Assembly (NCBI RefSeq): GCF_026571515.1 | Contig: NW_026856044.1 | Span: 1 to 64,000 of the forward strand | DNA length: 64,000 bases | Direction: 5' to 3' | Origin: Ruditapes philippinarum | Lineage: Eukaryota | Shown here: positions 11,300 to 63,494 of the stretch, one piece after another | Numbering within the stretch: the first letter of the stretch is position 1 | How the letters are laid out: each line of letters opens with the position of its first letter | Notes under the pieces: model-generated | Database searches by the model: none | The model's input: only the letters and a program-made list of their open reading frames with translations | What the model was told of the DNA's origin: nothing | Translations under genes and position numbers: made by a program

Positions 11300-11358
<59 letters not shown>

Positions 11359-15743: not shown

Positions 15744-18700
15744 CTATTTTTGAAAATGGAAAATTGCAATAGCGCACAGAGCAATAGCAGATATAGATAA
15801 GGAAATTATGATAAGATTAAAAACAGATATATAGCTTTCATTCGCAGTTTCTACGATCTCTTTCTCGTCATCTATTTTTTTATTACTGTCACTAAAATCA
15901 GTCTTATCATTTATCCTCTTTTCAGTTACATTATAAAATGATTTAAACGGGTGACTGGCAGTTCCAAAAAGTGTAAATGCTAAATTCTTCACCTCTAGTT
16001 GTTCTGAAAAAGAATACGATGTTGAAGTTAATATCACAATTGAAAAGCAAAATTCCTTTCCATAAAATGTTAATTCTTTACTCATAAAATTTGTCAACTT
16101 TTTATTATTATTATCATTATTATTTTTATTATCATCATCATTATCAAATTTAAATCAGCCCCTAAATTACGCTACACATTAGGATCTAACATTTACCCAT
16201 AGGCATCTTCTCGTGGTCTTTCAAACAACCAATTATTGGCGAGCTTTCATTATTTTGAAAGCGATGCGGTTTCTAATTCTTACCACTCAGTAGTTAATTT
16301 TCACAATTTCGAGTACAAACATGACGTTGTCAGATAAACGGTCAATACAATCTTGCCATTTAAAATTGACTCTATTATTTCAAGTTAAGTAGCAGAAAGT
16401 ACAATGGATATGAATAGATCAAGGAATGATAAAATATTTTCTCTTTAAGATATTGCGTAATTATAATTTCAACAAGCTTTATTTAAAAGAAGGAAACACA
16501 TCTAGAAAAGATAGGAACTCCACATAGGAACACATACTTTGATTAATGTTATGGCTTATATTGAAAACAATTGTCCAGTTTCCGGCAGGGTTTTCACCCC
16601 AAAAATGAACTGACGTAAAATTCCATATTCTCCATCCTCGTAAGTTTTTTTTACGATTCACATTTCCTTTGCGACTAAGTAGCTGAGAACAGGACCGGTG
16701 TGGTGAACAAAGAACAATGTCAAGTAAGTCGTCATGCTGTTTTGTATAGCTTAGACTTATCAACACATGTTCTAAATTGTTTATACAGTCTTTATCGACA
16801 GCACATTGGTCAACTTGAAGGTAAGTGCGTATAACATTTTCTCGAGGCAACCTGTAAATAAATAGGTAAATTATGACTTAATACAGAATAACAAGTATAC
16901 TACACAGCTTAACATCGGCGGGGGTAACAAAATAAAATATTCAGAAAGCAAGAAAACACTTTTAGAATACTTTCAAAATTTATGTTTGTCAAGCAATTCC
17001 CTCATGACTAACTGGTATTATTCCAACACTTCATTAACACCAGTTTGCATAAAAAAACGAAATGAAATGACCAATGAAGTAATACATTAGGGTTTAAATT
17101 AAAGCGGTTATTTTATTTTATCTTAGCTTTCAAAAATTACTATTCTTCCTCAAATTTATATATGTTTCACCAAATATACTCTTTCGAGAGCAATAAAATC
17201 AATAACTTTTAGATAACGATTGAAGACTCGACTTGACTTAGTCTGTTTATGAAAGGTTACGGATTGTGCAAAATCTCGCACCTCTTCTAGTACCGGCTTA
17301 AGTAATATTTCTTAGGTCACTCTGCAAAATCTATGTATTTTATAATCTTTGTTGTAGCATCAAACACAGTTTTCGTAAACTTTGTATTTACTGACCGTAT
17401 CTGCAATTTCGCTTCTTTGACTGTCTTCTGTTTTTGTGGTGGTACGTTTGTCCAATTTCTTGCCATAAGTGTCATTTTTGCAGCATTCATTAATCCAAAT
17501 CCAAGGAAAGAATCAACTGAAAATATGAAGTTAATGACTGTATGAAAAAAATATTTCTTTACAAAATGTAATTTGCCTAAAGATTTAAGGCTTGTAATGA
17601 ATAGTTGGGTTATATGATCATTTTCTTTTACTTTGAAGATATTTTACCTGTGGTTTGTGCCTTGTTCGTATTATTTTTTCAATAATTTCTTAGATAAATG
17701 TCTGTTGTTCTACACCTTTCTTAAATTAATAGAAAACAATTTAAGAGATAAACATGGCAGTTACAGAAAAAGATCATTGAATGTCATTCAGTTCTTGTTC
17801 GATTATAGTTGGTAGCCTTTATTTTTCAACATGATACAGTTACCTTTATAGTTTACTTTAAGGTGTCACTATAACTTACACTGTAGCCCAGCGGCATTTT
17901 TCTGAAGTTGTCCGGTGTTTTCTAGTCTTTCATGTGAGGCTGACAATACAATAATGTGTTGTAAATCTCTCCATGTAATGTTAGGACTGAAAAAGCGTTG
18001 TTATATACCAAGGTGATTTAGTAATATTCATCTTTTACCTTGCACAGAAATATCTTAGATATATTGACATTTTTATCTATAAACAATATAATATTGAATT
18101 CTAGATGACATATAACTTCATATGATAAATCTAACAAAGAGTCACACTTGTGAACGCTTTTGGATAGCTACAAATGATTGAGGTGTAATAATTTTATATC
18201 TTTTTACGAAACTATGAAACTGCTTTCATTTTGTTTAGTTTGAAATGACCACTTAAAAAATAGACAAAAGCTCAAAACGTGAATGTCATTATAACAGTCG
18301 AGCGTTCCATGGTTTTTATACTCACTTTGCCTGTAGAGTTAAAGCATTTATACCAGAAGCTAAAGCAGTTGAAGCAGATGTTCCCCTAAAATCATCACAC
18401 TTGTTGTCGTGCGTTGTAGTCTCCTGTGTTAAGCAAAAGAAAAGAACAATCATGGTACCTTAATGACCTTATCGGGGCTACATTCTATTGGAACGTCCAA
18501 ATTATTATTCATAATCAAACTGATGGAAATGGCCAAAAAGTTGTGACTGGGCTACATTAAGCTTAGGTTTACGAAATACATTTCATTAGACAAAAACGTC
18601 TCCAATAATTGAATCAAATAATCTATATAATGCACTGACAGCAAGAATTCTTCTTATGATTACATACTTGCCCCTTTTCACTTTCATTTGTGATGTATCA

Positions 18701-21700
18701 ATGTAATTGAGGTCAATATCAAAGCGAACAGTTATATACTTAATGTTATTCTTGTGTGTATTTTCTCAAATATGTATTGAAATGTTACCAAGGGATGATA
18801 CTGAAAATTTGTTTTTTGCGTACTTCTAATATTTCTATATACATGTACATAGCTTACTAGTTTCCCATGTCCGTTTAGAGTTTTAAACTCCCCGTAAGTG
18901 GATGCCAAGGTAGAGGCACATGGAATAGTATATGAGGGTCTTGATCCGTTCTTGCCAACACTTGAGATGGTGACAGTGTATATGCTGCTAGCCAGAGTTT
19001 CTATGTTACAATCATATATATGACCATGTCTATTTCCTGCAGAAAACACAAAGATGTTTCCTCTACCTTTTCGACCCTTTAACAGAAATAATAATTTGTG
19101 ATTTTTTTACGAGAACAATGTACTAAGACATAAATCAATTACATTCATCAACTAGTTCAGAAACAGCTTGTGAGCATTCAAATTTAATATGTTACATTTT
19201 CATTCAAAAATAGTATAGATCATATGGTGACTTTCCAGCTATACTGTTGGAGGAAAATCTCAGGAGCCTTTCTGTGCATTATTTCAGCCACGAACGGACA
19301 CCTTAGCAGAACCGCCGACATGCCGTAAGCTAGCTGGATAACTTCCTCGCATGAAAAAATGGTTTGAATCCAACTACCTTTACTACTCGGACACAGACGC
19401 CCCTTAAGGCATTACATTTGTATCCTTAGTTCAAAGACATAGAGCCCAAAAAGCAATCTAAATGAAGGAGAAAAGCAACAAGTTTTAGTTTTAATTTTTC
19501 AGCAACTTGTGTTGATTACTTTGCAGCCTAGGTTATTCTTTACTAGGAAAACACAACTTCAATTAACGAAATAATATTTACCTTTGTAACGCCTTCTTTT
19601 AGAGCTGATTTCATGTATAGTGAAGCCTTTCTAAATTTACCAGCTAGATTGAAACTGCATGAATATATATCTATTTCATCCCTTTTATAAACAATAGCTG
19701 ATGGAATATGTTCTGTTGATAAGGCAAATCCATGAAACATCCATGATTCGGGACTGTCGCCAGGATGGAACACTTTTAAAGCTAAGATATCAAAATGGAA
19801 CATTATCTTAAAATGCGAAAGATTAATGCATGATGAACGTTTCTACCGGTAATATCTTAACATATTTGTTTAGATTATTACGACAAATCAAATTGAAATA
19901 GTGCATAAGTGTACCTATAATCATTATAAGAAATCTTAGACGTCTCCTTTGACGGCCAGACAGGAAGCCGACCCGAAAATGATTAATATAAGCTTCCACT
20001 ATTTGTTTCACAATCAAGCGAAAATTTATCTGTTTAAACTAAACACTAGTCGAAATTCTTATTTCGATGTTTAAAAAATCCAGAAACATTCGTTTATAAG
20101 ATATATAAGATAAGTTAAATTTTTGCTATACTGGAACATTTAACACAATACTGTAAAAATTCTAAGCATCATTGAAGATATCGAAAATTTATTATTCATT
20201 AAATTACACAATGGTAAATACATTGTATACAAAAACACCAAAATGGAATTTAGATAAGTTTAATGTTTCTTGCACGTGTTGATTCAAGTAAAGAGATGTC
20301 TTGAATAATGTAAAAAAAGTAAACCTGCTACTTTTGACTCAAATGCTACTCCAGAAGAACATTTGTTGTTTCCAAACACAGCAGCAATTAGTCCGGCAGC
20401 CTTTGTGCCATGGCTACAAAATATTCATTTTACATCTTTGCATATCAAACAAAATAATCTATATCATTTCACTGTCTAACGATACTGGGGATGCTCATGC
20501 AATATACACTTATTATACAAAAAACCCTAATGTACGTAACTTTAAATGGACCTCATCATATTAAAAAAAGAGTATTTTAAGAGAATTGAGCTGTTTGACG
20601 AAGTTCACATGATTGAATTTGAATCGCCGATAAATTATGAAAAAGAGTGTAAAATGATATTTTTACAAATATTGTACAGTGTTAATTGTCGATCATAAGT
20701 TCAAAAGTTCTGTTTAAGGTTTCTACTATTTTCAACAAACACTCTCTGTCGGTCTGTCTCAAAGCCTTTTTTTGTTTTGTTTGTCAGTCCTTTTTTGTTT
20801 GTTTGTTTGTTTGTCTTTGGTTATTATTTCATTGAGCTCCTCAAGGACCGTTAAGTTTAAGAAACTAACAAATGTTTAATAATATTAATATAAAAGGTAA
20901 AAACGTCTTACCTAGTAGCTTCTGATGTTTCGATGAAGTCTCTAAAACGTGGAGGGTAAACATGGCTATGGTTTTTGTCAACGAAACTATATGAAAGATC
21001 ACTGGCCTGAAAATGATTTATATACTCATATATATATGTATGTATATTATCAAATTAAGTAACATATTTAAAGTGGTCCACTTCTCGATTATATTGTAAA
21101 GATAAAATGTTTTTTTTTTATTAATTACCTTGACAAAAAACAAACATGCAACAGATATTGTTGCAAATTCATCTTTAGGGTTTGTAAATGCTGTGTATTA
21201 TCCATGTTGCTTTCCGCTGATGGAGGTAATGAAGAAACAATATATTGATTAAGTAATGTGTACTATAATGTAACAAGTGAACACATTACAAGGCTCAGTA
21301 TTCGGCTTTTCTATTATTTTTAACGCTTATTAATTCGTCACTATGATGCCCTCAGGTAAATGTACACTCTTCTATGGTATAAATTACTTGTGCTATCGTT
21401 CTTTCTAAGAACTAACAATGTTAGATTTTAAGTCAGGATGGTCCACTTCTACTCCAATATCAACAACTGCCACGCTGACGCCATGTCCAGTGTAACCAAG
21501 TGACCAGGCTTCTTGAACAGCCATTCCATAGTATGGCCAGCATTGGCCTTTCTGCAAATACCATGTAATGACAACACGTTTTAAGCTCCATGCTTCCAGA
21601 AGAGACAGAATGTTTAAAGAAAATCAAATTTGAGAAAAATGAATTAATATTTTAAGAAATATAAAAAGATTCAAGATTCAAGTAATTATGTTATGTGCTA

Positions 21701-24700
21701 TTTATGACTGATTTTGCAATAATTATTTCCATATTTCTACGGTGTGACTAACGCACTAAGGGCTATGTTTGCATGTTTTGGGACCTTTTTGGTTATTTAC
21801 GTGGATTGAAAGTACCGTTTGCAGCGTGTCAATTACTTTTGTTGTTCATTTCACAATATTTCTCTTTTAAATTCATTTTCAAAGTTTACATGAACATTTA
21901 CATTAATGTTCGAAACTGTATTTAAAAGTAAAATATTGTGAAGTGCAAAAACATGTTATTCACTCACAACAAACGCCAATTGAAATCTACGAAATATCTC
22001 CAGAAAAGTTAAGTACAAGTATGCAAAACATATATGGTGATTAATACTTCAAATCAGTTTTAAATGGCATATAACATGTGAATTATTTCTTTAAATTATT
22101 TGAATTTGAATATTATTACTTTTCTTAAAGGCTGATTTACATGAAATCTTTTGACTAATCTTGAGACATGCAGCTCATTTCTTGTAACGGTGTAATTAAG
22201 TTGTTACATTTTATCGAAAACTAGTTCAGGAATATCCAAGAGCTATACATTTGTCAAAATAATAAACGAAATAATAAACGAAATATTCAAACTCTATTTG
22301 ATTTGTTCTGTTTTAGTTATAACAACGTTTGTTTTTTTCGCATTTAGTGTTCAATGCATTGACTTTAACTTAAAGAATAACAAAAAAAAGAAACAAAAAA
22401 AAAACATGCAAAAAGCATTTCACCAAAGGATGTGGTGACTATTTATGTTCTTAGTCCACACATTTCAATACCAGATGATCTGTATTAAGTGTGCTGTGAT
22501 TTAATACTACTCCCGAACCAGAACGTCTCTTAATGATGACATAAACGTATCTATATTCTAATTTATTATTATAGATTTGTTACTCACTATCATAATCGAA
22601 TGTGGAAAATAATCAGTTATCTAACTCCACTTATCTGATCTTATCTATAATGGAATTATACTTGCATATGCAGATCTCTTGCGTCGGAGTATCCATCTGC
22701 TGAACATTGTTTTTGCTGGTTCACTGGTTTGGTTTCCTCCAGTATGATATCTAACGATTCCCTTTTCACTTTTTTCAATGTTTAAAATCTGAAATGAAAA
22801 ACGTGTCTTTTATAAACTCATAAACATTCTTGTATTCTACTGTAGAATAAATTATTATAGATTCCTTATGTATAGCGTCTGGCCATTAGAGCTTGAATTT
22901 GGCACCTTGCATATCCTGAATCCCTTGCACATGAATAGACGATCACATCGTTTGGACTATATTCTGGTGAAATATAAAGTGTGTAAATGCATAATTCGCG
23001 TCCAAGTGCCCAGAAATTACGTGCATTGGCTTTCAATTGTCATTTTGAACTTATAGTTTACGTAGGCGGTCACAAAGGTAAAGAAACGTACTTATTTATA
23101 AGTTTCAACGTGTTCGTCGGTGGCCAAGACATGAGTTTATTGCAAAAAAGAAAGGTCGCAGTGCTAGAAGCAACGTGCATCCATGTTCTATAGAAAAATG
23201 TGTGTAAAAGTAACGATGCAACGCCGGGCAAGGGCTCAATAACATGCAATGTCCAGATCGTTTGAACATGAAAAGAGGCCCAACGTAGGGAGGTCCAAAC
23301 GATTCCTTTTTACTTAGGAAGGAAACTGCGGTCATGGCATATAACAGACGCATTAGTTACTTGTAAACTGTTATTCGCATATTTTAAGTATTTAACGTGA
23401 TGCAGGTGAAAATATGGTGTCACGACATACTTGTAATATTTACTAGTAATTACCTTGATTATAAATCTGATTGTATAACCTCAAATGTTTCTAAAAACCA
23501 AACACAGATTTAAACCAAAAACATGAAAGGTTGATAATTCTGTAAAATGAAATTAATGTTACCTTGTCAACGAAAAAGCCCTTGAAAGCCTTTATATCAA
23601 CTGTGATGCCCTCTGTGGGCGACATATTCCCTTCGAACAAGAGTATATTGGATACAAGCTGCAATGGAATCAAAATCATATCATACTTACTTACAATTTT
23701 GTATAATGTATTAATTAATAATAACTTTTGTCTGCTTGAATGTAACAAACTATTTACATTTTATTTTGTAATCTTTTTGCAAGTTACAGTTTGCCTTTTG
23801 CTTAACTTGAGCACATGTGTTTACAATAACTGATGATAACCACTCAGATGACATCCTATTACTTACATATGATATTGAAATTATGATTGTTTTAACGCAG
23901 AAAACATACGCTTTTATTGTCGATCTACCTCAATAATTATGTTTATTTTATGCTTTTCAGTGGATAACTGACTTATCCGTGAAAATTATATTTGATAATT
24001 GCACAGTGAAAATTATCAAAATATAATTTCACACTTTTCAATGACGAAACTACTTTTTTAAGATTTTCCCCATGTGGTACCTCAATTTTATTTTTGCTGA
24101 CAAATCTGACAATGTCAGGCTGTTTAAAGAAAAAGCAAAGCTGAAATTGATAATAGTATAAATGTCAAAAGTAATCAAAAGGAAAAAACTTACTTCTATT
24201 CATTCAAATACCAATCACCAAATTTAGTCTCTAAATTTTTTTTGTTTAATTTTTACAGTCTAAAAAATACATTCCTTCCACATGTAAAACTGCTCTTGAT
24301 GACATTTAGGCATATAAAAGTATCCTACGAGCAATAACTGCCTTATGCTTTATGAAAAATTGAAAAGCAATGATAACCATTATCGTAGAATAAGTAAACA
24401 GCCCAGCGTTCCTGAACCATTTTCTAAGTTTTCCATTTTCCTAGCTGCTTTTTTAATTTTTTCACATCTGTCAACACTTATTTTCGTCTGTTACAATCCT
24501 CAAATAAGTTTTCTTTCTTTTAAAAGGTGTATGACTAACAAATCCAAATGATATCTCTCTGAATCAAACACAATTATTTTCCTCCCGTGAAATACACAAC
24601 TTTAAAAAATGGCTGCCGCTTACATTTAACAAAGCTATATTGTAAATTCCTGGTAAAATTATCTCCTACAAGATCAATCAGATGATTAAAACCCCAACAA

Positions 24701-26138
24701 ACGCCCCTCGTTCCGGGTAAGGCTTTATCTAAACACTCACATGGCGATAAGTCTAAACCCAGTGCAAACGTCCGAAGCTAGTGCTTATTTTCAATTAATA
24801 CTACATCATAACATTTACGTCTTTTTATATTATAAATCTACAAAGAGAGCGTGTATAGCTATACACCAAGTTTAAAACACCCTACGAGTTTTAACTACTT
24901 TCTTTAATCTGACCATTTTTTATTTATTTTTTTTTTCTTTGGTCAATTTTAATTTTTATAATTTTTTTTAAAAGAACAGTAAGGGTAATACTAATTACCT
25001 CTCAACTTTAAACGTATTATTGAAAACGATAAAAGCAAGATAAATGAAAAACATTTTTTTAAGATACCATTAATTGTAGCACATATCTTTTATTTATGTA
25101 CGTCTTATATGCTAGTATATATCTGCCATATCTGTAATTGCACTGTGCATTTTGCCGCATGGGTCGTTCACATACTGGTTTGATATGAATAAAACTTGTA
25201 AAACTTATCTTCAACAATACTGCTAACTTGGTACATTTTCTTTACGGTGTAATTATGTTTTTACATATCTGGCACGTTTTAACCCACGTATTTTTGTTAG
25301 ACTGTATCATATAAAGCTACAGTCTCACTTACATCCCGGCAAAGTCCCGGGAGAGCCCCGGTAGACGTCCGGGGTGATCCGGGGACGACCGGGGTACGAC
25401 CGGGAACAACCGGGGTACATCCGTAACTCTGCCGGCAAAGTCCTGGATGGTCCGGGATGATCCGGGAACATCCGGCATTCGACCCCGAGACCTTACCGGG
25501 ATGGTCCTGGGCTCTGGGAGTAAGTGAGACCGAGGCTTAAAATAGAATTACAATGTCTACATGTAATACTGCACATATCCAGAAGCGTAGAAAAATGTGG
25601 GTTTTTTCTCTATCATGATTTTTAATTTGTTTTAATGTTTCTACCGGTAAAATCTTGATCCCATACTAACTTGCCAACATCACAATATTCAAAGTCACGC
25701 GCCGTTTTGAAGCAATACTGCGAAATTATATCCGGCTAACAGAACATCTTTAAATTTTTCGGAAGTGACGTTGAAATAGCTAATTGAAATATTAAACATT
25801 TTCATAATATGTAAACAGCGCAAATTGTTATAAATTACGTAAACTAACAAAAACCCTGTCATAACATAATCATTCTCAGCATAATCATTCTCAGTTGACT
25901 TTTGCTATATAATGATAAATAAATAATGATTTATAACGTTTATTAACCAACGATTGTTTACCTTTCTGACATATTTAAGTCCAAATCTTTGTGACTCTAG
26001 TGTTACTGTATCTATCCATTTCTCCTGTATTTGAATAATGTATTCCTGCTTCCGAATCTTGTCTTTCTTTTCTAGCACTTCTGAAAATGCTAGAACAATA
26101 AAAAATATTAAATACCACATATAAACAAAATATTTCAT
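15744..26138 (-). CDS. PC-A: divergent furin/kexin-family proprotein convertase-like serine protease, 677 aa, 13 exons, C-terminal TM
   Basis: Exons 25962-26138, 23563-23658, 22666-22788 (GC donor), 21417-21551, 20912-21006, 20325-20413, 19582-19781, 18858-19076, 18326-18423, 17880-17986, 17396-17516, 16538-16851, 15744-16003 join into one open frame (2034 nt). Motifs: signal peptide, GYTGHGVSVAVVDIG, HPDL, SHGTKAAG, FVFSAGN, GTSAS, TWRDLQH, GFGLMNA, P-domain LEHV...[21 protein letters not shown]. Confidence 0.92.
19215..19405 (-). mobile_element. SINE fragment (Deu-like central domain), intron 7 of PC-A
   Basis: Reverse complement reads ...atgcgaggaagttatccagctagcttacggcatgtcggcggttctgctaaggtgtccgttcgtggctgaaataatgcacagaaaggctcctgagattttcctccaacag..., homologous to 45962-46160. 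Confidence 0.6.
25315..25537. mobile_element. GC-rich MITE, PIF/Harbinger-like, intron 1 of PC-A
   Basis: Imperfect TIRs agctacagtctcacttacatccc / gggagtaagtgagaccgaggct with TAA on both flanks. Internal ~10-11 bp ccggg-containing repeats. Confidence 0.7.
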
Positions 26139-39000: not shown

Positions 39001-42000
39001 CTCTTTTGGTCGCCCAGGCCACTCGTCTCAAATGCTCGCCCTGCCCCTCTTAAATTCAGCAGCCCATTTCACAGTGCTATAGGAAAGGGACTCCTTCTCA
39101 AGTATATCCATGAAGTTTTCATGGATTTCTTTGGGGGACATTCCTTTCTTACAGAGATACATAATGACGGTTCTGATTTCAACTTTCTCCATTTGGTCTA
39201 AATGACACACACCCCTACTGATCAAAGTGTGTTTTATGTTACTTTATCTGTATAAAACCGCGTGTAACTCAGTCAGTAATCTTCAATAAGATATGGGTAT
39301 CGACGTATCGTGTGTAAATGTCAGTGTAGTTGCTAGAAGTATATCGTGCCGAGAACTTTTTGATCATACGCTCGTATATATATTTTACCTATTGAACAGT
39401 ATCAGTTCATTGCCAATTAATCAAAAGGACATACAATTTGAGTAATATTTATGTACATTTATATAATTGAATCAATACGTGACTAATAATCGGACAAATT
39501 GTGTATAACTTACTTTGCTTGTAAGGTTAAAGCAATTATTCCAGACGCTAAAGTTGTTGATGCTGAAGTTCCTTTAAAGTAATCGCACATGCCATCGTGA
39601 CTTGTAGTTTCCTTAATGAAGAGGTGTAATTAGTTTTGTACCAGAAATAATGATAATTATATTAAGTTTTAGAAGTATGCTTTTAGATACAAACTAAATT
39701 GGGTAATATCTTTCGAGTTAACATAGTAAATGTATTTTTCATAGCTGATTTTTTAATTGGCCAGATAGAATGAAAACATATGGTATTATAAAGAATTATT
39801 ATATATAGCTGAATTTCTAAAGTGGCCTCACCAAAGTCTTTGGACCTCTGAGTGTATTAAACTCTCCATATGTAGAAGCCAAGGTAGTGGCACAGGGTAT
39901 AGCATAAGAAGGTATCGAGCCGTCCTTGCCAACACTAGAAATTGTAATCGTATAAATACTGTTTGCAAGAGCTTCCATGTTACAGTCATAAACCGGACCT
40001 TTTTTATTTCCTGCAGAAAATACAAAAATGCTCCCCTTACCCGCTCTGCCCTATACAGAGAAAAAAATAAAAATATGATTTAATTATATATATGCTGTGA
40101 TGATAGAAATATTGGTTTAAAAGGCAAAAAATTAGCATTCGTTGGTTAACTTAAAATCATATCGGCATATCAATACTAGAGGTGTTTCAGATTATCATTA
40201 ACATAGACCGCATTCAACACCGTGTTTGTTTTTTGATACATTTCGAAAAAGGTAATAGTTTTGTAAATCGAGTAAATGGATATCTCAGAAATATGTTTTA
40301 TTTGAAATATTTATTAATAAAACTGTATGTGCTAGAAGTCGTAGCGTACCAGGAGAACTGTAATAGAACCATCTGTTTCATTTCATTCTTTTTTCATGTT
40401 GATTTTCCTATTTCATTTAACACTTGCATAGATCAACAAAGGAAGCAGATGTCAATTAATTACTTAAGATAAATGACATGCATAAGCTGTTATTGTATAT
40501 ATTTAAAGTGAAATTAAGGAAATTGATCAATGTTTCTAAACATACCTTTAGAACTCCTTCCTGTAACGCTGTCTTCATATCTGGGGTTGCCGATTTGTAT
40601 TTATTATGGAGATTGAAACTACAAGAGTAAATATCTATGTCTTGTCGTTTGTATTCAAGTGCAGAAGGGACATTAACTATTGAAAATGGAAATCCCTCTT
40701 TTATTGCCAAACTGATGTAATGCTTGTTTATTTGGAACACTTTTAGAGCTGAAAGGGAAATTAGAAATCGTCATTCTACGTCATCAAAGTGTAATCATGA
40801 AACATAGGTCAAACTACTACAACTTAATTGAAAGTTGAAAGTTTCTCCTTCTTACCACGAGAATACATGTACACCAATAAGATAATCAAATGATGCCGCT
40901 GTAGAACAAACAATGATTTCTTCAAACGAAATACAAATAACGGAACGCAGTATTATCAATTTGTACGTTTTGTTACGAGCTAAACGTAACAGAGAAGATA
41001 ACAAAGCAACAAATATTACAATTTTAATTGAAGAAAAACAGAAAAACAGTTATTTACAATAGTATAAGAATTATGAAAATAAAGTTTAACTAACTATTAT
41101 CCAAGACCTCGAATTTAACAAATGTCCTAAAGTTTAACTCACAGTTCAAAATTCAATTGTCCACAACTCAGATATTATCAATGTCAAATGTCCACAGCAG
41201 AATAAATACAATAAGTCCAAAGTATCCAATATGTCCCACACAGAATTACAAATCCAAACATATGTATTGCTATGTTAGCAGTACAATAGCACACAATCAG
41301 TATATCAATATCACACAACACCACAAAATAGCACACAGCTCGAAGTACAAACATTCATCATACATATACTATCAGTGAACAACTTTGAATACTAAACTAT
41401 TAGAGAAAGAATATTCCAGAATGAACATGAAGAGAACTTTCTTTGAAAGAAGATGAATCAACATGAACAATTATGTAAACATTAAATTAATAAAATTATT
41501 AAAAATAATAGTGACCTTAGGCGAAAGGAGAGGACATGCAACGTGCAAAACAATATAAACCAACGGGCCATACGGGAACCCAAAGGGACAAGGGTCGTAA
41601 TGGTGAAAGGGGAGGGGGTCAAAAATGGGAGGGTGTGTGAGAAAATACCTACCGTTAACGACAATTCAACAAGGCATAATATCACAATACATGTAAACAT
41701 TCAAAAAAATAACAACACAGACATGAAAACACGTGAAAGATCATAGAGTGGTACCGCCTTGGAACGGTCAGTGGTAGTTAAATCGGGATTAGGCGCGCAA
41801 AACCTCATTCTTAACCCCAATATGTTCCTGAATGACACGAAAGTGTAAATAAAATTAATCCCCGCCGAGTGAAATTCTAACAATGGTCATGGTTACTTTA
41901 GACGAAATAAATAAAACACAGAAAAGATTTTGTAAATATGTAGAAAAAGGTACAGCCTATTGACCATTACCAAAGTACTCGATGACTTAAAGGAAGGCAG

Positions 42001-45000
42001 AGCAACAGGAAAATCACCGACAAGGGCCCGACGAAGCAAGACAGAAGACGAACATTAAGACAATATAGTCCCAAAGGGTTTTAAGAACTGTCCATCATAG
42101 AGTCTCCCACTTAGTCGTCAGATGTAATTAAAAGAGGAAAGAGTAGCGTCCAACTGTAAAAAGGTTGAACACCAAGCATGCGGTATGCCTTAGAATAATT
42201 GGGTCATAACCTCTTTTAATAAACCGTTTGATAATTTTAGTGAAGACGGCAGAAAAATTACTATGCGTCGTAAAAGAGTTTTCAAATAACAATTAAATTT
42301 CAAAACTAAATCTGAATTACGATGGTAAAACTTCGTAAAATATTTGCGCAATTTATGATAACGATAACCTTGTTTAAGATGTTTGCTAGTAATAAATAAA
42401 TTGCGTAACACGTAGATTTTAGTTACTATAGTATTGTTAATGATAGAAATGTTTAAATCTTAAAAAGATGTTATAACGTCTGAAGAGTTAGTTTTATTCA
42501 ATTTTTAGTTCACTGGGATATAATTTAGAAACAATTTAATCGAAATAAGGATTATTCATGTTAAGGATATCATCTAGGTAGCGGGAAGTGTTGTTAAATG
42601 CATGTATAATTTCCTGGTGTGAAGTAGGGGAAAAACTTAACATAAAATCCCCCTCATAGCAGTAAAGAAATAAATCAGCTATCAGGGGTGCACAATTAGT
42701 TCCCATTTGAATGCCTATTATCTGTTTGAAAACTGTATTACCAAACCTGGCATAAATTTTATCTAATAAAAACGAAAGTGCTTAACTTACTTACTTATAA
42801 TTCCTTATGAAATCGTATTGTCATAATTGGTCTGCACGATAAATATAAAAACAAGCATATCAATTAAAAGCGTTTATAGTTTGTTACACACTCAGTTAAG
42901 GTGAACACAATGAAATTTGAAATGTTTAAAATTAGTTTGCAAACCTGCCAACTTTGCATTAAATGCAACTCCAGCAGAACATATTTGATTACCAAATTCC
43001 GCACCAATAAGTCCAGCCGCCATTGTTCCATGACTGCAAAATCAATATTGAACACGTCAAATATATATATTTATGTATGTAGGTAGGTAGGTATGTACTT
43101 AGTATGAACGTGTGTGCGTGTGTGCGTGTGTGTGCGCGTGCGTGCGTGCGTGTGTGAAAGAATAAAAAGACAATTATGTTTTCTTTCCTTTTTAAGATAT
43201 ATTTTTTCAGTTCAATAAAGTATTATTTAATGAAGGACGTTTAACATTGTACAATATGTAACTGATTATGCTACTTTAAGCAAAAGTAAGGGACAGTGAG
43301 ACAGACAGCTATAAGATAAAAAAAATAGCACCTTGTTACTTCCTCGGTTTCCATGTAGTCTCTAAAACGGTCAGGACTAACAAAGCTGTAATTTTTGTCC
43401 ACAAAACTGTACGAAAGATTCAAATCCTGTAAATGGAAACAAAAATATGCTGGCCTTGTGCTATTTCTTCAAAACTTTAATTACCCTCATAAAGGTGCTA
43501 GAGATCACATGTTTAGATTGATAGGACTGGTGCATTAATTTTTTCAAGAAAAATGTTTAGCTTATATAGCTTATTAAAGCAAAGGGTCAAAAAAGGGTTT
43601 TTGGGAAAGGGGAACTATATTTTTATGATTATTTGTTTTCTTTTTTTTTTAAAACACAGTTTGAAACTTTGGGGGCTGATTTCCAAAAAAAAAAATTTAA
43701 AACAAATTTTCCCGGGCTGTGGGTTTATTAGGGCTTTTAAAAAAACTGGGAAAAATAAATTCCCCCATATTCGATACTATAAATATTTTTTTTTATACTT
43801 CTGGCATTTTTCTTAAAAAACAACTTACAATGTTTCGTTTTAAGTCCGGGTGGTCAACAGCTACTCCAATATCTACAATAGCAACATTGACGCCAAGTCC
43901 TGTGTAGCCCAGTGACCATGCTTCCTGGATGTCCATTCCATAGTACGGCCAGCACTGCTTTTTCTAAAAATCGATATTGTTATCGTTGATTTAAAGGGTA
44001 TCGATACCATTAAGTATAACAAATCCCCACTATAAAATGTATGTACATTTCACTATTGTTGATCATTATTGTTACTTATATTTAAATAATTGCAATTACA
44101 TTTTATAACGTTTCAACAGGGTCAATTGTGATTTTCATTCCATACAAAATGATATTGTACTAAGTAGCATATTCGTCTGGTGTTGTATAATTTGCAATAT
44201 CTCCGGTGATGTAAAATCTGGATAATCTATGCAATATCAGCTTAGTGAAATATTATATAAAGATATTTAAAAATTATATTATTAGTAGCTTCTTATTTGA
44301 AACGACAGCTTGATTTAAAAAATGTCCGTAATTACACATCACTTACGTTTTCATACTTGATTGGTTTAAGAAACCATCGTTCAAGCGTTTGTTTTTCGCT
44401 ACTTTGATTTCTCCACGTGTGATATTTAACAATCACTTTTGCCCGCCTTTCTGCATGTTCAATCTGTAAGAATACAATGACTTATATTATACACAAATCA
44501 TTTGATATTCGTGTGGCGGAATGGCCGATTGGTTTATGCGACGGACTCATTGTTATTATCACTAGCCATGTTTGGCTAGCCACTGTTTTCCTTGAATATG
44601 AAACTGACATTCATTGATCAGCTACTGTTTGGTTCTAGGAACGGATTACAGATTGTATCTGTAAGCGTATATAGCTACCTTCGAAATAAAAAAAAAATAA
44701 AATAAACTCTGTATTAAATACGATACATTTACAGAAAATATATCAGGTTGATTTATCTAATAAAACATAAATGCAAATATCAACCAGCGAGAATAAGATA
44801 AAGGTTCATTACCTGCACCAACACTAAGTCTCAAATTCATAAAAATAACAATACGCCTTTTGTCAGATAGTACCTTACAGAAATAATAAAAAATAAACAA
44901 TACAATGGTATTAGCATAGAAAATGGACTAAATGGCAGGACATGCGATAAAACCAACATAAAGATATAGAACTTATATAAATAAATGCATGACAACTTTC

Positions 45001-47327: not shown

Positions 47328-48233
47328 TACGGAAGCACAGAGGTATGGAAGCACAGAGGGGACATTCCTGTTTTATTTTATTTTCCTATCTCGTGGCCAC
47401 GAGATATAACTCAGAAAAAAACAACAGAAATTACAAATTACTTATCTCGTTCCCACAAGATATAAGTCAGAAAAAAAATTGCTATCTCGTGGCCACGAGT
47501 TATAACTCAGAAAAAAAATTGCTATCTCGTGGCCATGAGTTAGCCGTCCAATCAGATGAACACATCTAAGTCGTGGAAACGAGTTAGCTGACCAATAAAA
47601 TCGAAGATGTGCTCGTTGATTTCGGCGCGAGTAGACATACTTGCCAAGATGGCGGCCTATAGAATGATTTTATGTCAACGAGATAGAATAAAAAGCTAAA
47701 AAAAAAAAGCTTATTGGCCGATTAACTCGTGGTAACAATATAGCAAATTTTTGTTTTTTTGGTTTGTTTTTTTTCTTCTAAGTTATAACTCGTGGGAACG
47801 AAATAGCAAATTTTTGTTTTTTGTTGTTTTTTTCTGACTTATATCTTGTGGGAACGAGTTAAGTAATTTTTGTTTTCTTTCTGAGTTATAACTCGTGGCC
47901 ACGAGATAGTGTTTTAATGTTTTGTTTTTTTCTTAGTTGTATCTCGTGGGAACGAGAAAGCATTTTGTTATTTTCTGAGTTACATCTCGTGGCAACGAGA
48001 TAGGAAAATAAAATAAAATCGGAATGTCCTCTCGGTGCTTCCGTACGAAAAAGCAAATTTAGTTGGGTTTTTTGTATTTTTTTCTGAGTTATATCTCGTG
48101 GGAACGAAATAACGATTTTTTTTGTCTGAGTTGTATCTCGTAGCCACGAGATAAATTTTTTTCTAAGTTATATCTCGTGGCCACGAGAAAGGCAAATGAA
48201 ATAAAATCGGAATGTCCCCTCTGTGCTTCCGTA
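47328..48233. mobile_element. Foldback/MITE-like DNA element with repeat-rich arms, upstream of PC-B
   Basis: TIRs tacggaagcacagag(g)ggacattcc / ggaatgtcccctctgtgcttccgta. Arms are built of ctcgtggccacgag / ctcgtgggaacgag repeats. Putative 6-bp TSD catgca/catgcg. Right terminus duplicated at about 48020-48045. Confidence 0.8.
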
Positions 48234-54931: not shown

Positions 54932-57900
54932 CTAAGTCATAGCTACAATAAAGTTATTCAAATAGCAACCAATTACAATTACTACTAATGCAATAAAAAC
55001 AGAGGCGAGGAAGACGTAAAATAAATACACTTTATGGCTTGACTCTTTCAAATTCTCTTCCGTGTTGTCTCTAGAAGAGTTTGGGAGATCATTTAATACA
55101 TAGTGTTTAAACCTGCTGTACCATTCAATTAGATTTAAAACATTATATTCTTTCAAATTATTTCTCTCATCCCATTGCAGGTTATAAAATCTTTTTGAGG
55201 GGTTGGTCGGTGTTCCATATAACGTTAATGCAACTTTTCGTAGTTTAAACATTTCTGAAAAATAGAGGTATTTCTTTTGTCAATTCAAAGCTATATATAA
55301 CACTTCTTTAACATTTCAAACTAAAGACAACTGGAATATAAAACGAATTGATCAAACATTAGGTTGTTTCCGATAATTAACCTGAATTATTTCAATGTTA
55401 AATACTTACCTTGATCAAGATCACTGCTATTACGAACAATTAGAAACCACTGTCCAGTAGGATTCTCTCCCCAAAACTGTACTGATGTGTAATTCCAGGA
55501 TCGTGTTCCATGATATGAGTTAGTTTTGTAATCATATGTCCTATCAGAAGTTTTCCTGTTTAGTAAAAGTGAGCAGGAATTCGACGGTGAACAAAGCAAT
55601 ATGTCCACAAAAGCTTCAAACTGTTTATCATATTTCAGCTCTACTTGTACATGCTCCAAGAATTTGATACATTGATCACCCTTTTCACATGGTCCGACCT
55701 GAACTGTAACAGCTATTGCATCTTGACGGGGAGGCCTACAATATAAAGGAACTAGTTTGTAAAAAATATGAAAATTTATACTTCAGAATATATTGGAAGC
55801 ATTTTACCTCATGAGCATATTGTGAAAAATGACCGTTTTCATTGGAAAGCATCGTGTTACAAGTTCAAACTGCAATGAAACTTTGAAAAATGCTTCAATA
55901 CTAATGAAACTTGGCAAAAATGTTGACTAGACCATAGCCCTCTGTAACAGCATGCTCAGTCTCAAATTTCCTGTTACCAAGGCAACGGGGGGACATCTCA
56001 AAATTGCCAAAAATTACTATTTTGCATTGTTTTTTTTCATCAAAACTGATTATTTCAAGGTGCTGCAACTTCTCAATGGAAAATGCAATATATGTACTGT
56101 TATGGTATGACCTTGCTCGAGATGGAGTAAAATGTAGCCTGTCACATTTCTAGAATTTTCTTGGCGATGAGCTACCGCCCCCTTCAAACCCCTAAAATAG
56201 AAGGGGGCACATCTCCCTTCTGGCAAACCGCTGATGTATCTTTCTGATACTTACTACTTCAAATATATTCATTTTTTTGGGTGCTTCAAAATACAACAAT
56301 ATTAATCATATGTGTCTTGTAAAGCTTTACAATTCAATGAACGCCACTGGTTGTGTCTTATAATGATATGATATTCAACTCTGAAGCATAATCGAAGAGT
56401 TATATGAGACACACATTTTGTTCTATAATTCATCTAGTAATTGACAGTTTTGTGTTTCATACAACAATACTTACCAGTTTTCTCTTTGTGTTTCATATAC
56501 TGTGGTTTGTTTTTGAGGTGGTACCGTCAACCATTTTTCAGCCAACAATGTCATAGCAGTAGCATTCATCAATCCAAATCCAAAGAAAGAATTATCTACA
56601 AAATTAACAAATCACATTAGAAGTTTAATTGTGCGAACTAGTTATCTATCAACTTACTGTTGACATTGCAACATCACAAGTTTACCAAAGCTATTATCTC
56701 AATAGCATTGTTCGTTGTGTAAAAATAGTCCAAATAAGTAAAATTTATATGAGAAATATTAGCATTATCATTATTCAAATGTCATAAAATCAAATTAAAA
56801 AGTTTTCTTTCACTTTAAACTAAATATCGTGTATATAATTAAAAGTCTTTTGGGTTATCAATAGTTTAAAAAGCGGTATACGTGACCAAAAGAGTGGTGC
56901 AGGTCTTTTTCGCTCGTGCCTAATATAATGACAGTTTAAAACATTCCTATACGTCACAAAAACGTTCTATATAGATACGCTTTAGGACATTTCAGCTGTT
57001 TCAAAAAATTATATAATTACCACTTTTTTCATAATCTCTAACTTAATAAATCCTGTATTATTTCACTAATGGTTTCATTTATTTTCTTATGATGCATCTA
57101 CACTTGCGTACATAAGCAAGATACAGTTAAGATTCCTGAGGCATCAACTTGTGTGTATGATACATTTACTTTATCTTTTAATGTTATCCTTAACTGCAAA
57201 TACTAGTAACTCAAAAATCACTTCAGTGTATCAAGGCATATGATATCAGTTATTTAAACTATCGTATTGTATGTATTTATATGAAAGTATCGTGTCTTCA
57301 AGTATTTACATATCAGCTTACACTGTAGCCCGGCAGCATTTTTCATTAGTCCTCCGGTATGTTCAAGTCTTTCGTGAGAAGAAGATAGTACTATTATGTG
57401 TTGAACATCTCTCCAAGTCAGCTTAGAACTGAAAAAGTAAAAAACGTTAAAAAGTATCTCAAGTTTATTTTTGTTGATAAATATTATGCAGCAGATTAAA
57501 TAAAATATGCATATAAGTGTATATTGATTTACATATTAGTCTAATTCTTAGCAGCTCCAGATTATTTTATTTAGAACTAAAACAACAGGCCGCTTTCGTT
57601 TCTCAAATAAATTTGTTTTACAAACGAGGATTGATAAAAAAAGTTCTAGGCCCGATGTACTTATTGCAGTCAGAGAACCTAACTAATGGTATTACTTTTC
57701 AATATAATCGCCCTCTACATATATGCACTTAGCCCACCTGTGCTCCAACTTGTTTAACCATTCAAAATACAACTCTCTATTTTGGGCGTCAAAGGACTTA
57801 TTGACCGCCTCCATGACACCTTAATTGCTTCCAAAAAGTCTAGGGATTGGGAAAGAATTTCAAAGTCGCAGTCAGTTTTAGCAGCAATCGTAACTTGGGA

Positions 57901-60900
57901 TGTGTGAGCTGGCGCATTGTCGTGAAGGGCAGAACGCCTTGAGTCATTTTGCCCCTCCTTTTACGCGCGATTTCTTGACGCAGACGTTTCAATTCGTCTG
58001 CAATATACGTACTGTTTATGGTATGACCTTGCTCAAGATAACCAATCATGATTATCCCCTGACTATCCCAAATATTGAAGCCGTCATCTTCCCTGCTGAT
58101 GGCACCCATTTGAATGTCTTCGGAGGGGTGAGCCAGGTTCTTCCTCTGCATGCTCTGGGGTTTTTTTTGGATTCTGGATCGAAGTGATGGACCCTGGTTT
58201 TATCCCGAGTTACGATCCGGCAGATAAAATCAGGTTCATCCTCGTTGAGAGACAAAAGATATAATGAAATGTCAAGCCCGGTCCGTTTTTGGTCGTCAGT
58301 CAACTGTCTGGGGACACATCTAGCGGAAACCTTTGACATGCCATAGACATCAGTCAGAATTGCCTGAACTGAACCAAAGCTTATACCCACATCCTTAGGA
58401 ATGCTTAGCAGGTCTCGCCTTCTGTCGCACATGACCAGATCGTGCACAGCTTCGGATGTTTCATCGTCATCCGCTCATCATCTCCAATGCTCGCCCTGTA
58501 CCTTGTAAAGTCAACAGCCCATTTTTTCACAGTGCTATAGGAAGGGGACTCCTTCCCAAGTGTATCCATGTAGTCTTGGTGGATTTCCTTGGGGACATCC
58601 CTTTCTTACAGAGGTACCTAATGATGGCTCTGATTTCAACTTTTTTCCATTTGGTCTAAAATACAAACCCCTCTACTGATCAAAGTGTGTTTTATTTTTC
58701 TTAATCTGTATAAAACCGAGTGTTACCCGGTCAGTAATCTTAAATAAGATATCTGTATCGAAGTATCGTGTGTAAATGTCAGTGTATGTATTTGAATCAA
58801 TACGTGAATAATAATCGAACAAAATGTGTATAACTTACTTTGCCTGTAAGGTTAAAGCAATTATTCCAGACGCTAAAGCTGTTGATGCTGAAGTTCCTTT
58901 AAAGTAACCGCACATGCCATCGTGACTTGTAGTTTCCTTAATGAAGAGATGTAAATAGTTTGATTCAGAAATAATGATAATTACATTAAGTTTTAGAAGA
59001 ATGATTTTAGATAAAAATTAAATTTGGTAATATCTTTCGAGTTTACACGATATATGTATTTTTCACAGCTGATTTAATTGGTTAGATAAAAAAGTATATC
59101 GTATTATAACATTTATTATATATTGCTGAATTTCTAAAATCATCTCACCAAAGTCTTTGGACCTCTGAGTGTATTAAACTCGCCATATGTAGAAGCCAAG
59201 GTAGTGGCACATGGTATAGCATGAGAAGGTATCGAGCCGTCCTTGCCAACACTAGAAATTGTAATCGTATAAATGCTGTTTGCAAGAGCTTCCATGTTAC
59301 AGTCATAAACCGGGCCTATTTTATTTCCTGCAGAAAATACGAAAATGCTCCCTTTACCCAATCTGCCCTATACAGAGAAAAAGATAGAAATAAAATTTAA
59401 TAATATATATGCTATGATTATAGAAATATTGGTTAAAAAAGCAAAAAATAACATTCATTGGTTAACGTAATATCATATCGGCTAACAATACAAAAGTTGG
59501 ACTAGAGGTACTTCAGATAATTATGAACTTAAACCACATTTGACACCGATTTATTTTAAATTCATTTCCAAAAGAAAGGCAATGCGTATATTAACTGGAA
59601 TAAATTTTGTAATTGTATTGGTCGAGTAAATTGACTTCTCTAAAATATGTTTTATGAATAATAGTGTATGTCATGTATGTGCTAGAGTGTGCAGCGTACA
59701 GCGTACTGCTAAAGAACCATCTCGTTATTTTTTTTTATTGAATTTCATTTTATTGTTGATTTTTTCAATTTTATTTAACAATTTAATAGAACATTTAACA
59801 ATTTGATAGAATAACTAAGGAAGCAAACGCCAATTACAATGTAATTACTTAATTTATTGTCATTTACATTTATCTTCAACTGTATTAAATATTGTATTCA
59901 TAAATGGAATTTAAAGAAAGTGATAAATGTTTCAAAACATGACATCCTGCACCGTTAGCACTCCTTCCTGTAATGCTGACTTCATCTCTGGGCTTGCTGA
60001 TATGTATTTATTATGAAGATTGAAACTACAAGAGTAAATATCGATGTCTTGTCGTTTAAATTCAAGTGCAGAAGGGACTTTATCGATTGAAAAGGGAAAT
60101 CCCATTCGTACGTCCAAACTAATGTATCGCTTGTTAATTTGAAACACCTTTAGAGCTGAAAAAAAGAAATAAGTATTGCAACTTACAAACAATCCATAAT
60201 TTAGATTCATATAACAGTATAAGCATGTTCAGATTTGCAGCAGTGACTCGAGATAAAAGCGGATCATTGAGATGAATCCATGTGCAGTTCTGCAAAATCT
60301 ACCCACAAAGAAGTACGTTGCGATTGACGTTAGCGGTTGGACGTATGTGATTGGACTACTGACAATAATGAACAGCGGATTAATTAAGTAAATGGTTTGA
60401 AAAGCGATATTATTTTAATGTTAATGCATCCACTTCGTCGGAGGTGAAAGTTTGTAGGTGAATTCATGGCTTTGTTAGGAATATGTTTCTGTGGGCTATA
60501 AATTTGTTTCATAGGTACAGGCTACAATTTCATATTATTTACGTGCTCTTTGTCGCTCGTGGCTCAAAGAATTTGCGCTCTTTTGTTATTAGAACTATAC
60601 ATATAAAGCGAAACCAAAGTATTTAATTTACATTACGCGATTGATGTTGACGTTGTGTACTCAAAAACACTGAAACATCTAATTGTAATCAGTTTTTGCC
60701 CAAACCGTGTAGCATGTACTGACTCTTCATTCAAAATAGGTGAAAACATATTTAACGCTGGCGGATAATTAAACTATTAACTAAATTATTAAGGTGACGT
60801 TTCATTGCAAAGATGACTTATCATTGAATGCTAAAATTCTCGCAAAAAATGCCGTAAGAGCACTTGGAAAAATAATTGCTCAGACTAGAGATATAAAGGA

Positions 60901-63494
60901 ATTTTACATTAATACAGCTGAATTTTTCTCAATTCATTTGCTGTTCAAATTATGGATTACTGCTCGGGCGTGGACAAAACATCTATAGAAAATACCAAAC
61001 AATAAAACAAAGTGCAGCATTGTACGATTAGATCATTTCTTGGTGTCCACATATTTCAACCCATACCTGCAATTACCTGTCATATTGTTTGGATTCGGGC
61101 AATATGATAGATCCTTACTCTGACCTTTTATTTGAATTACAATACATTGACATGTGTTTTTTGTTAACAAATAGGTTATGATGAAAATCATATATTAAAA
61201 CACTAGTCTGATAATTTGAATGAGACAGATTAGGGTTACATAGGGATCTATCCATTAAAGATGATAGTTAAAAATGCTACGGATGCAGAACAGGCCCGTG
61301 TTTCTAAATGACAAAACAATCATAAAAGTGTTTTTGGATTACAGCCGTTGTATAGCCATTGTTAATGTAACTGGTGCAGTGAGGTTTAGGATCGAATTAA
61401 ATGACAGCTTTATTTAAAGACAACCAGTAAGTCAGAAAACAACTAGCAAACAATGCATAATTGAAAATCATTAAAATGATTGGCCTTGGGAAGTTATGAA
61501 AGTTTATAAGTTGCGAATATTATTCCATTTCAAGAGCGACTTTAAAAATAAAACATATCTTGACCTCAGCCTTAAAGAACGAGCGATCGCTACTAGCACA
61601 TTCGCGGTATTGTATCCTGCCATTCCGTATAGAAACCGGGCGGTATGTTGGTGAAGCGCCAGATCAGAGACTGTTGCAAACTGTGAAATTCTGGTAACAT
61701 TGAATATGAGCAGCATTTTGTACTCAAGTGTTCTTTATATCCGGATAATATACTCGATAATATAAGTAAAGTTCTCTTGTGTGATCAAACTATCAACATG
61801 AGAGATAGAGATATGTTTCTTAACATTATAAGATATTACCCTAGGAGAATTGTGTTCTCGTTTTTCTGCAGATAAATAAAATGTTAACTTATTTACTTAT
61901 AATTATGTATGGCATCAGAATGTAACGATTATTCTGCACAATAAAAATAAATACCAACTGGCTTATAAATTCAAATCATTGATAGTTAATCACACTCAGT
62001 TAAAGGTAAAACAATGAAATTTCAAATGTATGTTTGTTTTTTAGAAATAATATTGCAAACCTGCTAATTTTGCATTGAATGCAACTCCAGCAGAACAATT
62101 TTGATTACCAAATTCCGCACCAATAAGTCCAGCCGCCATTGTCCCATGACTGCAAAAATGAACACAAATATCATATATGTATGTTTGTATGTGCGCGCGT
62201 GCGAGCGTGTGCGCGTATGTATGTATGTATGTATGGAGATGTGCGTGCGTGCGTGTGTGTGTGTGCGCGTATGCACGTGTGTGAGAGAATAAAAAAATCA
62301 ATTATGTTTTCTTTCCATTATATATATGACATTTTGTGTTCAATAAAGTATTATTTAATGAAGGAGGTTAAACATTGTAAATTGTGTAACTGATTATGCA
62401 CTTTAAGAAAAAGTAAGAGATAGTGAGACAGACAAAATAAAAGATTTAACACCTTGTTACTTCCTCGGTTTCCATGTAGTCTCTAAAACGTTCAGGATTA
62501 ACAAAGCTGTAATTTTTGTCCACAAAACTGTACGAAAGATTCAAATCCTGTAAATGGAAACAAAAGTATGCTGGCCTTGTGCTATTTTTGCAAAACCTTA
62601 ATTACCGTCATAAAGGTGCTACAGATCACACGTTTAGATTGATAGATGCATTGATCTCTTCAAGAAATATGTTTAGCTTATTAAAGCAGGATCAAAGGTT
62701 TTGGCAAATAAACTATAATTATATGATTATTTGTGCTTTATTTAATTACAGTTTGAAACTTTGGTGCTTATGCATTTAATCAAAATCCAGTCTTTGTTGA
62801 TAGAGCTTCATAACTGCATATAAATTTTGCACATATTCAACAGCTATACTTTTGTTTTGTACATGTTGTATACTTCTGGCATTTTTCTTGAAAAACAACT
62901 TACAATGTTTCGTTTTAAGTCCGGGTGGTCAACATCTACTCCAATATCTACAATAGCAACATTGACGCCAAGTCCTGTGTAGCCCAGTGACCATGCTTCC
63001 TGGATGTCCATTCCATAGTATGGCCAGCACTGCTTTTTCTAAAACAAAAGAGCAAAAGTTTTATCGTTGATACCGAGAACATCACTACAACATGTATAAA
63101 ATACAATTGTTGTACTTTTCTCTACAATTAATCAATTTATCGATTATCAATATCTAAACACCTTCAATTATTTTTACAGGTTTCATAAGAGTCAAATGAA
63201 ATTGTACTTAAAATCATTAACCGTGTGGTATAATTGTAAAATGTGAAATATCTGTACACTATCAACTTACTGAAATATAATGTAAGATATTTGAAAATAA
63301 CTGGTAGGTAGCTTCAGTTTCGAAATGAGAGCTTAATAACAAAAAACACAAAGGAAACAACATAACACAAAACTTACGTTTTCGTACTTTATTGGTTTAA
63401 GAAGCCATCGTTCAAGCGATTGTTTTTCGCTACTGCGATTGCTCCACGTGTAATATTTAACAATGACTTTCTCCCGCCTTTCTGTATGTTCAAT
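54932..63494 (-). CDS. PC-C: convertase-like paralog of PC-B, exons 3-13 (5' exons lie beyond the window)
   Basis: Exons 63378-63494, 62904-63038, 62453-62547, 62061-62149, 59953-60155, 59149-59367, 58839-58936, 57322-57428, 56475-56595, 55410-55735, 54932-55254. Open frame, triad and oxyanion Asn intact. Confidence 0.92.
55804..56240 (+). mobile_element. Truncated copy of the piggyBac-like element, intron 11 of PC-C
   Basis: ttacctcatgagcatattgtgaaaaatgaccg... is colinear with 27338-27790. Confidence 0.8.
57625..58786 (-). mobile_element. Decayed mariner transposon, intron 9 of PC-C (one TIR deleted)
   Basis: Same family, orientation and flank as 38183-39374. ORF fragments [15 protein letters not shown]...RIVTRDKTRVHHFDPESK. 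Confidence 0.9.
60550..61800 (+). mobile_element. Highly degenerate LINE (CR1/L2-like) remnant, intron 6 of PC-C
   Basis: Fragment ...LSLNAKILAKNAVRALGKII...MDYCSGVW resembles the region C-terminal to a non-LTR RT. Absent from the equivalent PC-B intron. Confidence 0.4.

Follow-up and report, generated by a model that had tools for sequence, protein, structure and literature searches.

To our knowledge, a kexin/furin-type enzyme that carries a P domain cuts its substrates exclusively after basic residues, and the known non-basic convertases, SKI-1 and PCSK9, belong to other branches of the subtilases. The locus described here raises the question of how the propeptide of such an enzyme ends, and how it might be released, where both the basic site and the substrate pocket have changed. 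The first-pass annotation had proposed that in three genes the R-X-K-R of the propeptide was replaced by the block I-V-[K/R]-Y-[H/Y]-T, and that this block is an autocleavage site which co-evolved with the pocket and reports an aromatic/His specificity at P1.

The window (the whole 64,000-nt stretch of DNA analysed) lies on contig C4531, has a GC content of 33% and comes from the 1.4-Gb genome of a venerid clam. It carries three tandem minus-strand genes of the kexin/furin type (S8B), named A, B and C, all of which are intact. The genes and the features around the block are as follows.

15750..26138, minus strand: gene A, 13 exons, intact open frame of 676 aa
22666..22788, minus strand: gene A exon 3, with I-V-R-Y-H-T at 22741-22758; equals P0369
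22675..22686, minus strand: R-R-K-R/S of gene A, an intact furin-type site just before the mature core, also present in the second contig copy
33052..47045, minus strand: gene B, 13 exons, 704 aa
44347..44463, minus strand: gene B exon 3 (last prodomain strand, pro-tail and linker), AG/GT ends, spliced joints on both sides
44416..44433, minus strand: I-V-K-Y-H-T of gene B; in the furin register V is P4, K is P3, Y is P2, H is P1 and T is P1'
44356..44367, minus strand: K-P-I-K of gene B, by alignment the decayed counterpart of R-R-K-R in gene A
54935..63494, minus strand: gene C, exons 3-13 inside the window
63378..63494, minus strand: gene C exon 3, with I-V-K-Y-Y-T at 63447-63464; equals P0002

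The stretches quoted in the first-pass annotation proved to be exon 3 of 13-exon genes in A, B and C, and the three translations and their coordinates were exact. The exon chains of A and B have AG/GT ends with a single exception, a GC donor at exon 3 of gene A (window 22664-22665, minus strand), with which the NCBI protein concurs. The model of gene A is identical to the NCBI protein P0369 over the length of the model, and gene C, whose exons 1-2 lie beyond the window end (C4531:64699-65468), matches the NCBI protein P0002 exon by exon; both proteins are labelled 'neuroendocrine convertase 2-like' of Ruditapes philippinarum. Gene B is 97% identical to P0001 over 470 columns and encodes, in order, a signal-like N-terminus, a prodomain, an S8 domain, a P domain and a C-terminal hydrophobic segment. 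Its joints 45622/44463, 44347/43963 and 43828/43425 (exons 2/3, 3/4 and 4/5) are GT-AG splices and were present in all three contig sets compared, which we guess to be of RNA origin; one raw RNA run, which hardly covered exon 3, contained no B joints. The dN/dS values ranged from 0.15 to 0.39 overall (B-C 0.39, B and C versus A 0.16-0.18, catalytic exons 0.15-0.26), and judged by these ratios the three genes are under purifying selection. The intact frames and the dN/dS values below 0.4 rule out pseudogenes or chance open reading frames.

Several other elements were observed at this locus and elsewhere in the genome. A partial fourth copy at window 6413-11546 (minus strand) comprises exons 6-13, which are 75-96% like the gene A exons and carry many small indels; exon 3 or 4 was not found upstream of it, and the copy is either a pseudogene or an assembly error. 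A second segment (G000:C2094:88792-127283), likely the other haplotype, contains an A-like and a B-like gene in the same order, and its B copy (B') reads V-K-Y-Y-K. There are 67 S8 matches over 27 contigs of G000, a count that includes other S8 types; many are divergent and convertase-like, and the convertase-like genes represent a large expansion. Exon 3 was looked for in the paralogues on C3621 and C15544 and was not found, and L006 and L007 yielded none. Three related insertions lie in introns (window 33903-35189, 38182-39386 and 57624-58786), one of them with a weak match to a mariner-type transposase (PF01359, E 5e-5, below the cut-off). A long tandem-repeat array separates genes A and B (window 26355-29535), and smaller arrays are located at 31201-32130 and 47343-48234.

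To place the family, the proteins were compared with Pfam and with homologues. The S8 domain (PF00082) was found in A and C, followed after the catalytic domain by a P domain (PF01483), which also falls within the structural overlay onto furin 116-574. The catalytic triad, the oxyanion Asn and the P domain that characterize S8B are all present, and the P domain rules out a non-basic convertase of the PCSK9/proteinase K type. The Pfam prodomain family PF16470 gave no match; the predicted prodomain is otherwise alpha-beta, and in the model it docks beside the cleft. Protein searches yielded a bivalve clade (SH-aLRT 99) in which the junction can be read in 24 proteins; a subclade of 13 members is nested within it (support 95). 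The subclade includes A, B, C, B' of the second contig, and proteins of Mercenaria, Mya, Dreissena and others. These counts omit P0006, P0128, P0130, P0160, P0228 and P0232, which have no junction, and use the full-length cluster mates P0370 and P0363 in place of P0123 and P0231; B, B' and C are near-duplicates, as are P0003 and P0004, so that the 13 represent about ten lineages. The tree separates the clam, coral and R-V-L-[R/K] proteins from furin, PC1, PC2 and PC5. PC2 has Asp at the oxyanion position. Orthology to PC2 was rejected, since this position is Asn and not Asp in 12 of the 13 members and the family does not group with the PC2-like P0263. A sister clade (P0240, P0311 and P0320; L011:8876-8974) reads D-[T/D]-[L/V]-K/P at the junction, and its three proteins have Pro in place of the oxyanion Asn; they are possibly pseudo-enzymes. 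In the literature outside subscription journals and bioRxiv supplements, we found no account of this bivalve convertase family or its pocket.

The position of the block was determined from the prodomain side. The motif ends 8 residues past the last prodomain strand, which is predicted at 84-89, and bridging relatives carrying I-E-Q-Q/R fix this anchor. Of 343 aligned proteins, 200 could be anchored and have a canonical S1; in these, residue 8 counted from the strand is Arg in 186 cases and Lys in 8. Canonical junctions (155 distinct) have the consensus R-V-K-R, with Val at P3 in 74 and Lys at P2 in 131; the R-X-K/R-R that ends there in basic convertases is missing from the clam enzymes. In a structure of furin with the PC1/3 prodomain, the pro-tail threads the S6-S1 subsites (PMC12405487). 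The block thus takes the position of the furin primary site as the first-pass annotation had placed it, and the furin numbering of the block is plausible on sequence grounds, with the caveats that a 20-sequence alignment shifted the register by 3, that the hhalign confidence at the junction was 2-4, and that V-K also matches the canonical R-V-K-R one residue earlier.

Within this register the conservation of the block is uneven. Exon 3 of A and of B are 41% identical with saturated synonymous sites, and the 5/6 match of their blocks was reached in 16 of 3,000 shuffles. Over the 13 members, P4 is V/I/L in all, P3 is K/R in 11 and P2 is Y/F in 10 (His in 2, Ser in 1; the three Myida members read H, H and S). 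Conservation is lowest at P1 (Y 4, R 4, H 2, V 2, S 1); the residue at P1' is Pro in 7, Thr in 3, and Lys, Ile and Ser in one each. The claimed conservation of the block therefore exceeds chance between A and B and extends to homologues as V/I/L-[K/R]-[Y/F], but the final [H/Y]-T does not persist beyond the window.

Then we compared the pocket. Furin recognizes its substrates and binds calcium II with the acidic residues D154, D191, E236, D258, D301, D306 and E331 (S1/S2/S4 and calcium-II ligands; furin residue numbers here were checked against PDB alignments). The corresponding positions of gene B, together with its catalytic residues, lie in four exons.

43829..43963, minus strand: gene B exon 4, with the catalytic Asp, D154>I and C-W-P-Y-Y, at which the mature core starts
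40546..40748, minus strand: gene B exon 7, carrying E236>V, W254>F and G255>N, an insertion in the wall of S4-S6, and a D258 loop shortened by a 3-residue deletion
39832..40050, minus strand: gene B exon 8, oxyanion Asn retained, D301>Y, D306>E, E331>I
39514..39611, minus strand: gene B exon 9, catalytic Ser

The results showed that D154, D191, E236, D301 and E331, as well as the D258 loop (by the 3-residue deletion), are lost in 13/13 members, so that of the acidic pocket and calcium-II residues of a basic convertase all but D306 are gone; the D306 position reads Glu in 11, Asp in 1 and Val in 1. The Asp/His/Ser triad is kept in all 13 and the oxyanion Asn in 12, G255>N is found in 12, and the conserved P372 is lost. 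The changes E236>V/I (confirmed by profile alignment, while phmmer placed the gap differently) and D154>I, on which the first-pass annotation relied, are real and clade-wide, and a hydrophobic P4 accompanies the pocket changes in 13/13 as it had supposed. V/I/L at P4 and Y/F at P2 fit a match of these two positions to the changed cleft. We concluded that the clam enzymes have a kexin/furin fold yet lack the features by which basic-residue convertases, and PC2 in particular, are defined.

The match does not extend to P1: near-identical pockets accompany Y, R, H, V or S at this position, and as read from the alignments the agreement between pocket and tail in the clam subclade holds at P4 and P2 and fails at P1. 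This bears directly on the proposal that A, B and C cut themselves after His or Tyr (V-K-Y-H/T) and thereby reveal an aromatic/His P1 specificity. The proposal has the exact furin register on its side, as well as the six closest proteins, all of which have Y or H at P1, and the Thr at P1' in A, B and C, a residue tolerated in 10/155 canonical junctions. Nevertheless, the same pocket occurs with R, V or S at P1 in 7/13 members, the nearest outgroup, Mercenaria, reads Y-Y/P, and gene A retains R-R-K-R/S. We know of no subtilase that cuts before Pro, a point on which a literature search returned no paper, and Pro stands at P1' in 7/13 members as compared with 0/155 canonical junctions, which speaks against the block as the autocleavage site of the clade. 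Moreover, a PC1/3 mutant without a calcium-II ligand is described as self-cleaving and inactive in trans (PMC13419460); on that description, a self-cleavage site need not report the trans specificity. We consider the proposal unlikely.

The suggested co-evolution was also examined across the alignment. Of the 118 rows, 86 could be scored; 64 have D306 together with a basic P1, 17 have neither and 5 are discordant. The pocket losses are concentrated in two clades, bivalves and corals, and an independent-pairs test of D306 against basic P1, which predates the discordant P0364 and P0366, gave 4 pairs and a sign-test p of 1, so that co-evolution in the statistical sense was not borne out. The coral clade is nonetheless an independent precedent for the idea of the first-pass annotation. 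It consists of 20 proteins with D306>N (P0043, P0131-P0134, P0136-P0143, P0157, P0158, P0190, P0192, P0206, P0273 and P0276), in which position 8 (P1) is Tyr in 17 and Phe, Leu and His in one each, followed by a canonical mature start; judged from its sequences, this clade is the less ambiguous candidate for an enzyme of the kexin type that cuts after Tyr. Nine further coral convertase-like proteins with D306>S/N (P0153, P0154, P0163, P0164, P0170, P0178, P0191, P0213 and P0251) seem to be without a prodomain: the signal peptide is followed by a brief leader, in many cases containing a K-R/R-R pair, and then by the catalytic domain.

The V-K match noted above raises another possibility, namely that the enzyme cuts itself after the conserved Tyr/Phe, a residue before the site given by the furin register. 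I-V-K-Y would then mirror R-V-K-R, with Arg>Ile at P4, Arg>Tyr at P1 and V-K inherited from the canonical site, and the clade would be chymotrypsin-like. The shift would move Pro to P2', where it is allowed in 8/155 canonical junctions, the aromatic residue (10/13) is better conserved than the residue after it, and the exon-7 insertion could take up the one-residue displacement. It would, however, require a tail of 7 residues, whereas 194/200 canonical proteins are basic at position 8, where four members of the subclade still have Arg; it would also place Lys/Arg in an S2 that has lost both acids, and the Myida members would have H, H and S at P1. On this balance we regard a cut at the earlier position as decidedly doubtful.

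A different register is obtained from the side of the mature core. In gene A, R-R-K-R/S occurs about 23 residues downstream of the block, where the mature core of the AlphaFold model starts; the quotation of gene A in the first-pass annotation stops, at an ellipsis, just before this R-R-K-R/S-A. The deep model overlays mature furin from Q125 (C-W-P-Y-Y), equivalent to furin 116 (Z 47.8, rmsd 2.1, 444 aligned), and the overlay also starts at residue 1 of subtilisin. Counting back from Q125 places the furin P1 near 116-119, the position taken in gene A by R-R-K-R/S. The equation of RWFL with furin QWYL was reproduced by hhalign at moderate confidence, but the structural overlay begins 12 residues past RWFL, and the deep model puts RWLL in a linker helix of low confidence.

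Strong furin-type sites in the linker are present in 7/24 clade members (A, P0364, P0366, P0005, P0125, P0363 and P0356) versus 10/177 canonical linkers (Fisher p=0.001, uncorrected for kinship). All seven carry S or D after a site, and in six of them, P0356 excluded, the sites lie 8-13 residues before the Y-Y element. The other 17 members have no strong site, among them B, C and the two close relatives from Mercenaria; at this place B and C read K-P-I-K and Mercenaria reads R-P-R-K/T. The proposed replacement of R-X-K-R does not hold for gene A, which keeps such a site, as do six others of the 24; B and C have lost theirs. In short, the signal picked up by the first-pass annotation is real, but P1 was over-read and the surviving furin site was missed.

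Structure models were used to follow the tail. The deep AlphaFold model (118 sequences, pLDDT 86.6, pTM 0.88) was built from an alignment pre-set in the furin register and is biased accordingly. In it, one strand forms at residues 92-95 and another at 248-251, the exon-7 insertion, and the two may pair at the S4-S6 wall; there is no strand bridge at N274. Residues 91-100 have a mean pLDDT of 78, residues 103-106 are below 50, and the linker is loose. The prodomain is modelled with pLDDT above 90 across 31-90 and, in an overlay of model residues 25-458, matches pro-Tk-subtilisin in its unprocessed form (344 aligned, rmsd 2.2); an Atlas search returned prodomain-like clusters only. Modelling of the tail, which the first-pass annotation had called for, thus produced the 92-95 strand in the deep model, but the shallow model leaves residues 90-127 unplaced, and docking of the tail in the cleft is a prediction.

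A docked tail might also never leave. The proteins would then stay bound to their prodomains and act mainly as non-enzymatic binders, like PCSK9 after its single self-cut. Pro at P2, P1 or P1' in 15/24 clade members points in this direction, as do G255>N, which may block the cleft, the lost P372 and the sister clade without the oxyanion Asn. Retention of the triad in 13/13 and of the oxyanion Asn in 12/13, purifying selection on the catalytic exons and the persistence of furin-type sites in 7/24 argue the other way, and we think permanent retention quite improbable.

The reading that we favour, tentatively and at somewhat less than an even chance, is that of a hydrophobic pro-tail latch with release in trans where R-X-K/R-R/S survives, in which B and C may cleave themselves. 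I-V-[K/R]-Y-[H/Y]-T would be the end of the pro-piece in bivalve furin-like proteases that lack the acidic pocket residues of furin. Val at P4 and Tyr at P2 likely plug the hydrophobic S4 and S2 subsites, and the block likely reports preferences at these two positions and not a new P1. With Pro at P1' in most relatives and the acids of the pocket lost, the clade probably does not depend on self-cleavage at the tail. The Asp at the furin D115 position is not conserved in these enzymes; in PC1/3, according to a preprint, this Asp completes calcium site I after self-cleavage and licenses exit from the ER (PMC13419460), and its absence would remove one reason for self-cleaving. Where R-X-K/R-R/S stands before the mature core (A, Dreissena, Mya, Potamilus and others), it would be cut in trans by furin or another basic convertase. 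Since 17/24 members are without a strong downstream site, such release cannot be general. In the A, B and C lineage, P1' is Thr/Lys and not Pro. Since B and C have also lost the basic site, these two are the strongest candidates for cutting themselves at the tail, either after H/Y or at the preceding residue; gene A, which has both Thr at P1' and R-R-K-R, complicates the latch account. Once active, the enzymes are predicted to act as convertases on hydrophobic-X-aromatic-X sites without requiring the S1 calcium. All of these cleavage steps are deduced from sequence.

A broader scheme may be drawn: an expanded bivalve kexin-type family that turned to hydrophobic/aromatic sites without S1 calcium, lost self-activation through Pro at the former scissile bond and became furin-activated zymogens in a convertase cascade, with self-cleavage after His/Tyr regained in Ruditapes B and C, and with corals arriving independently at Tyr-P1 through D306>N. 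As a whole we hold this scheme to be rather unlikely. A furin cleft rewired in an animal lineage would show how basic specificity can change, and would imply that rules based on basic sites overlook genuine processing in molluscs and corals. Differing in P1' (Pro or Thr) and in whether R-X-K-R is retained, the paralogues offer a natural series for self- versus trans-activation.

Compared with known systems, the clam enzymes share with the S8B enzymes furin, PC1/3, PC5/6 and Kex2 the S8 and P domains, the D/H/S/N residues, an alpha-beta prodomain and a C-terminal hydrophobic segment, and are about 33% identical to furin; they differ in lacking the acidic S1/S2/S4 residues, the calcium-II ligands and R-X-K/R-R at the end of the prodomain, and in a linker about 20 residues longer than that of furin, counted between two anchors. 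The coral D306>N convertases likewise combine a kexin-type fold with a non-basic P1 at the exact furin position, but they form a separate clade, mostly keep W254-G255, D154, E236 and E331, and have no Pro at P1'. SKI-1 has a hydrophobic P2 and a loose P1, which the clam pattern resembles, and by this analogy the clam enzyme may work like SKI-1. As described in PMC9296861, SKI-1/S1P and PCSK9 are also secretory subtilases with a non-basic pro-tail, and PCSK9 has a Cys/His-rich C-terminal domain and no P domain; both belong to other subtilase subfamilies, whereas the clam enzymes sit among kexin-like proteins. PCSKX, an invertebrate-only kexin-like group of cnidarians and spiralians (bioRxiv 10.1101/802215), is likened here by description only, and the passages of that preprint on PCSKX mention neither a changed pocket nor a changed pro-site; the clam family may derive from this group.
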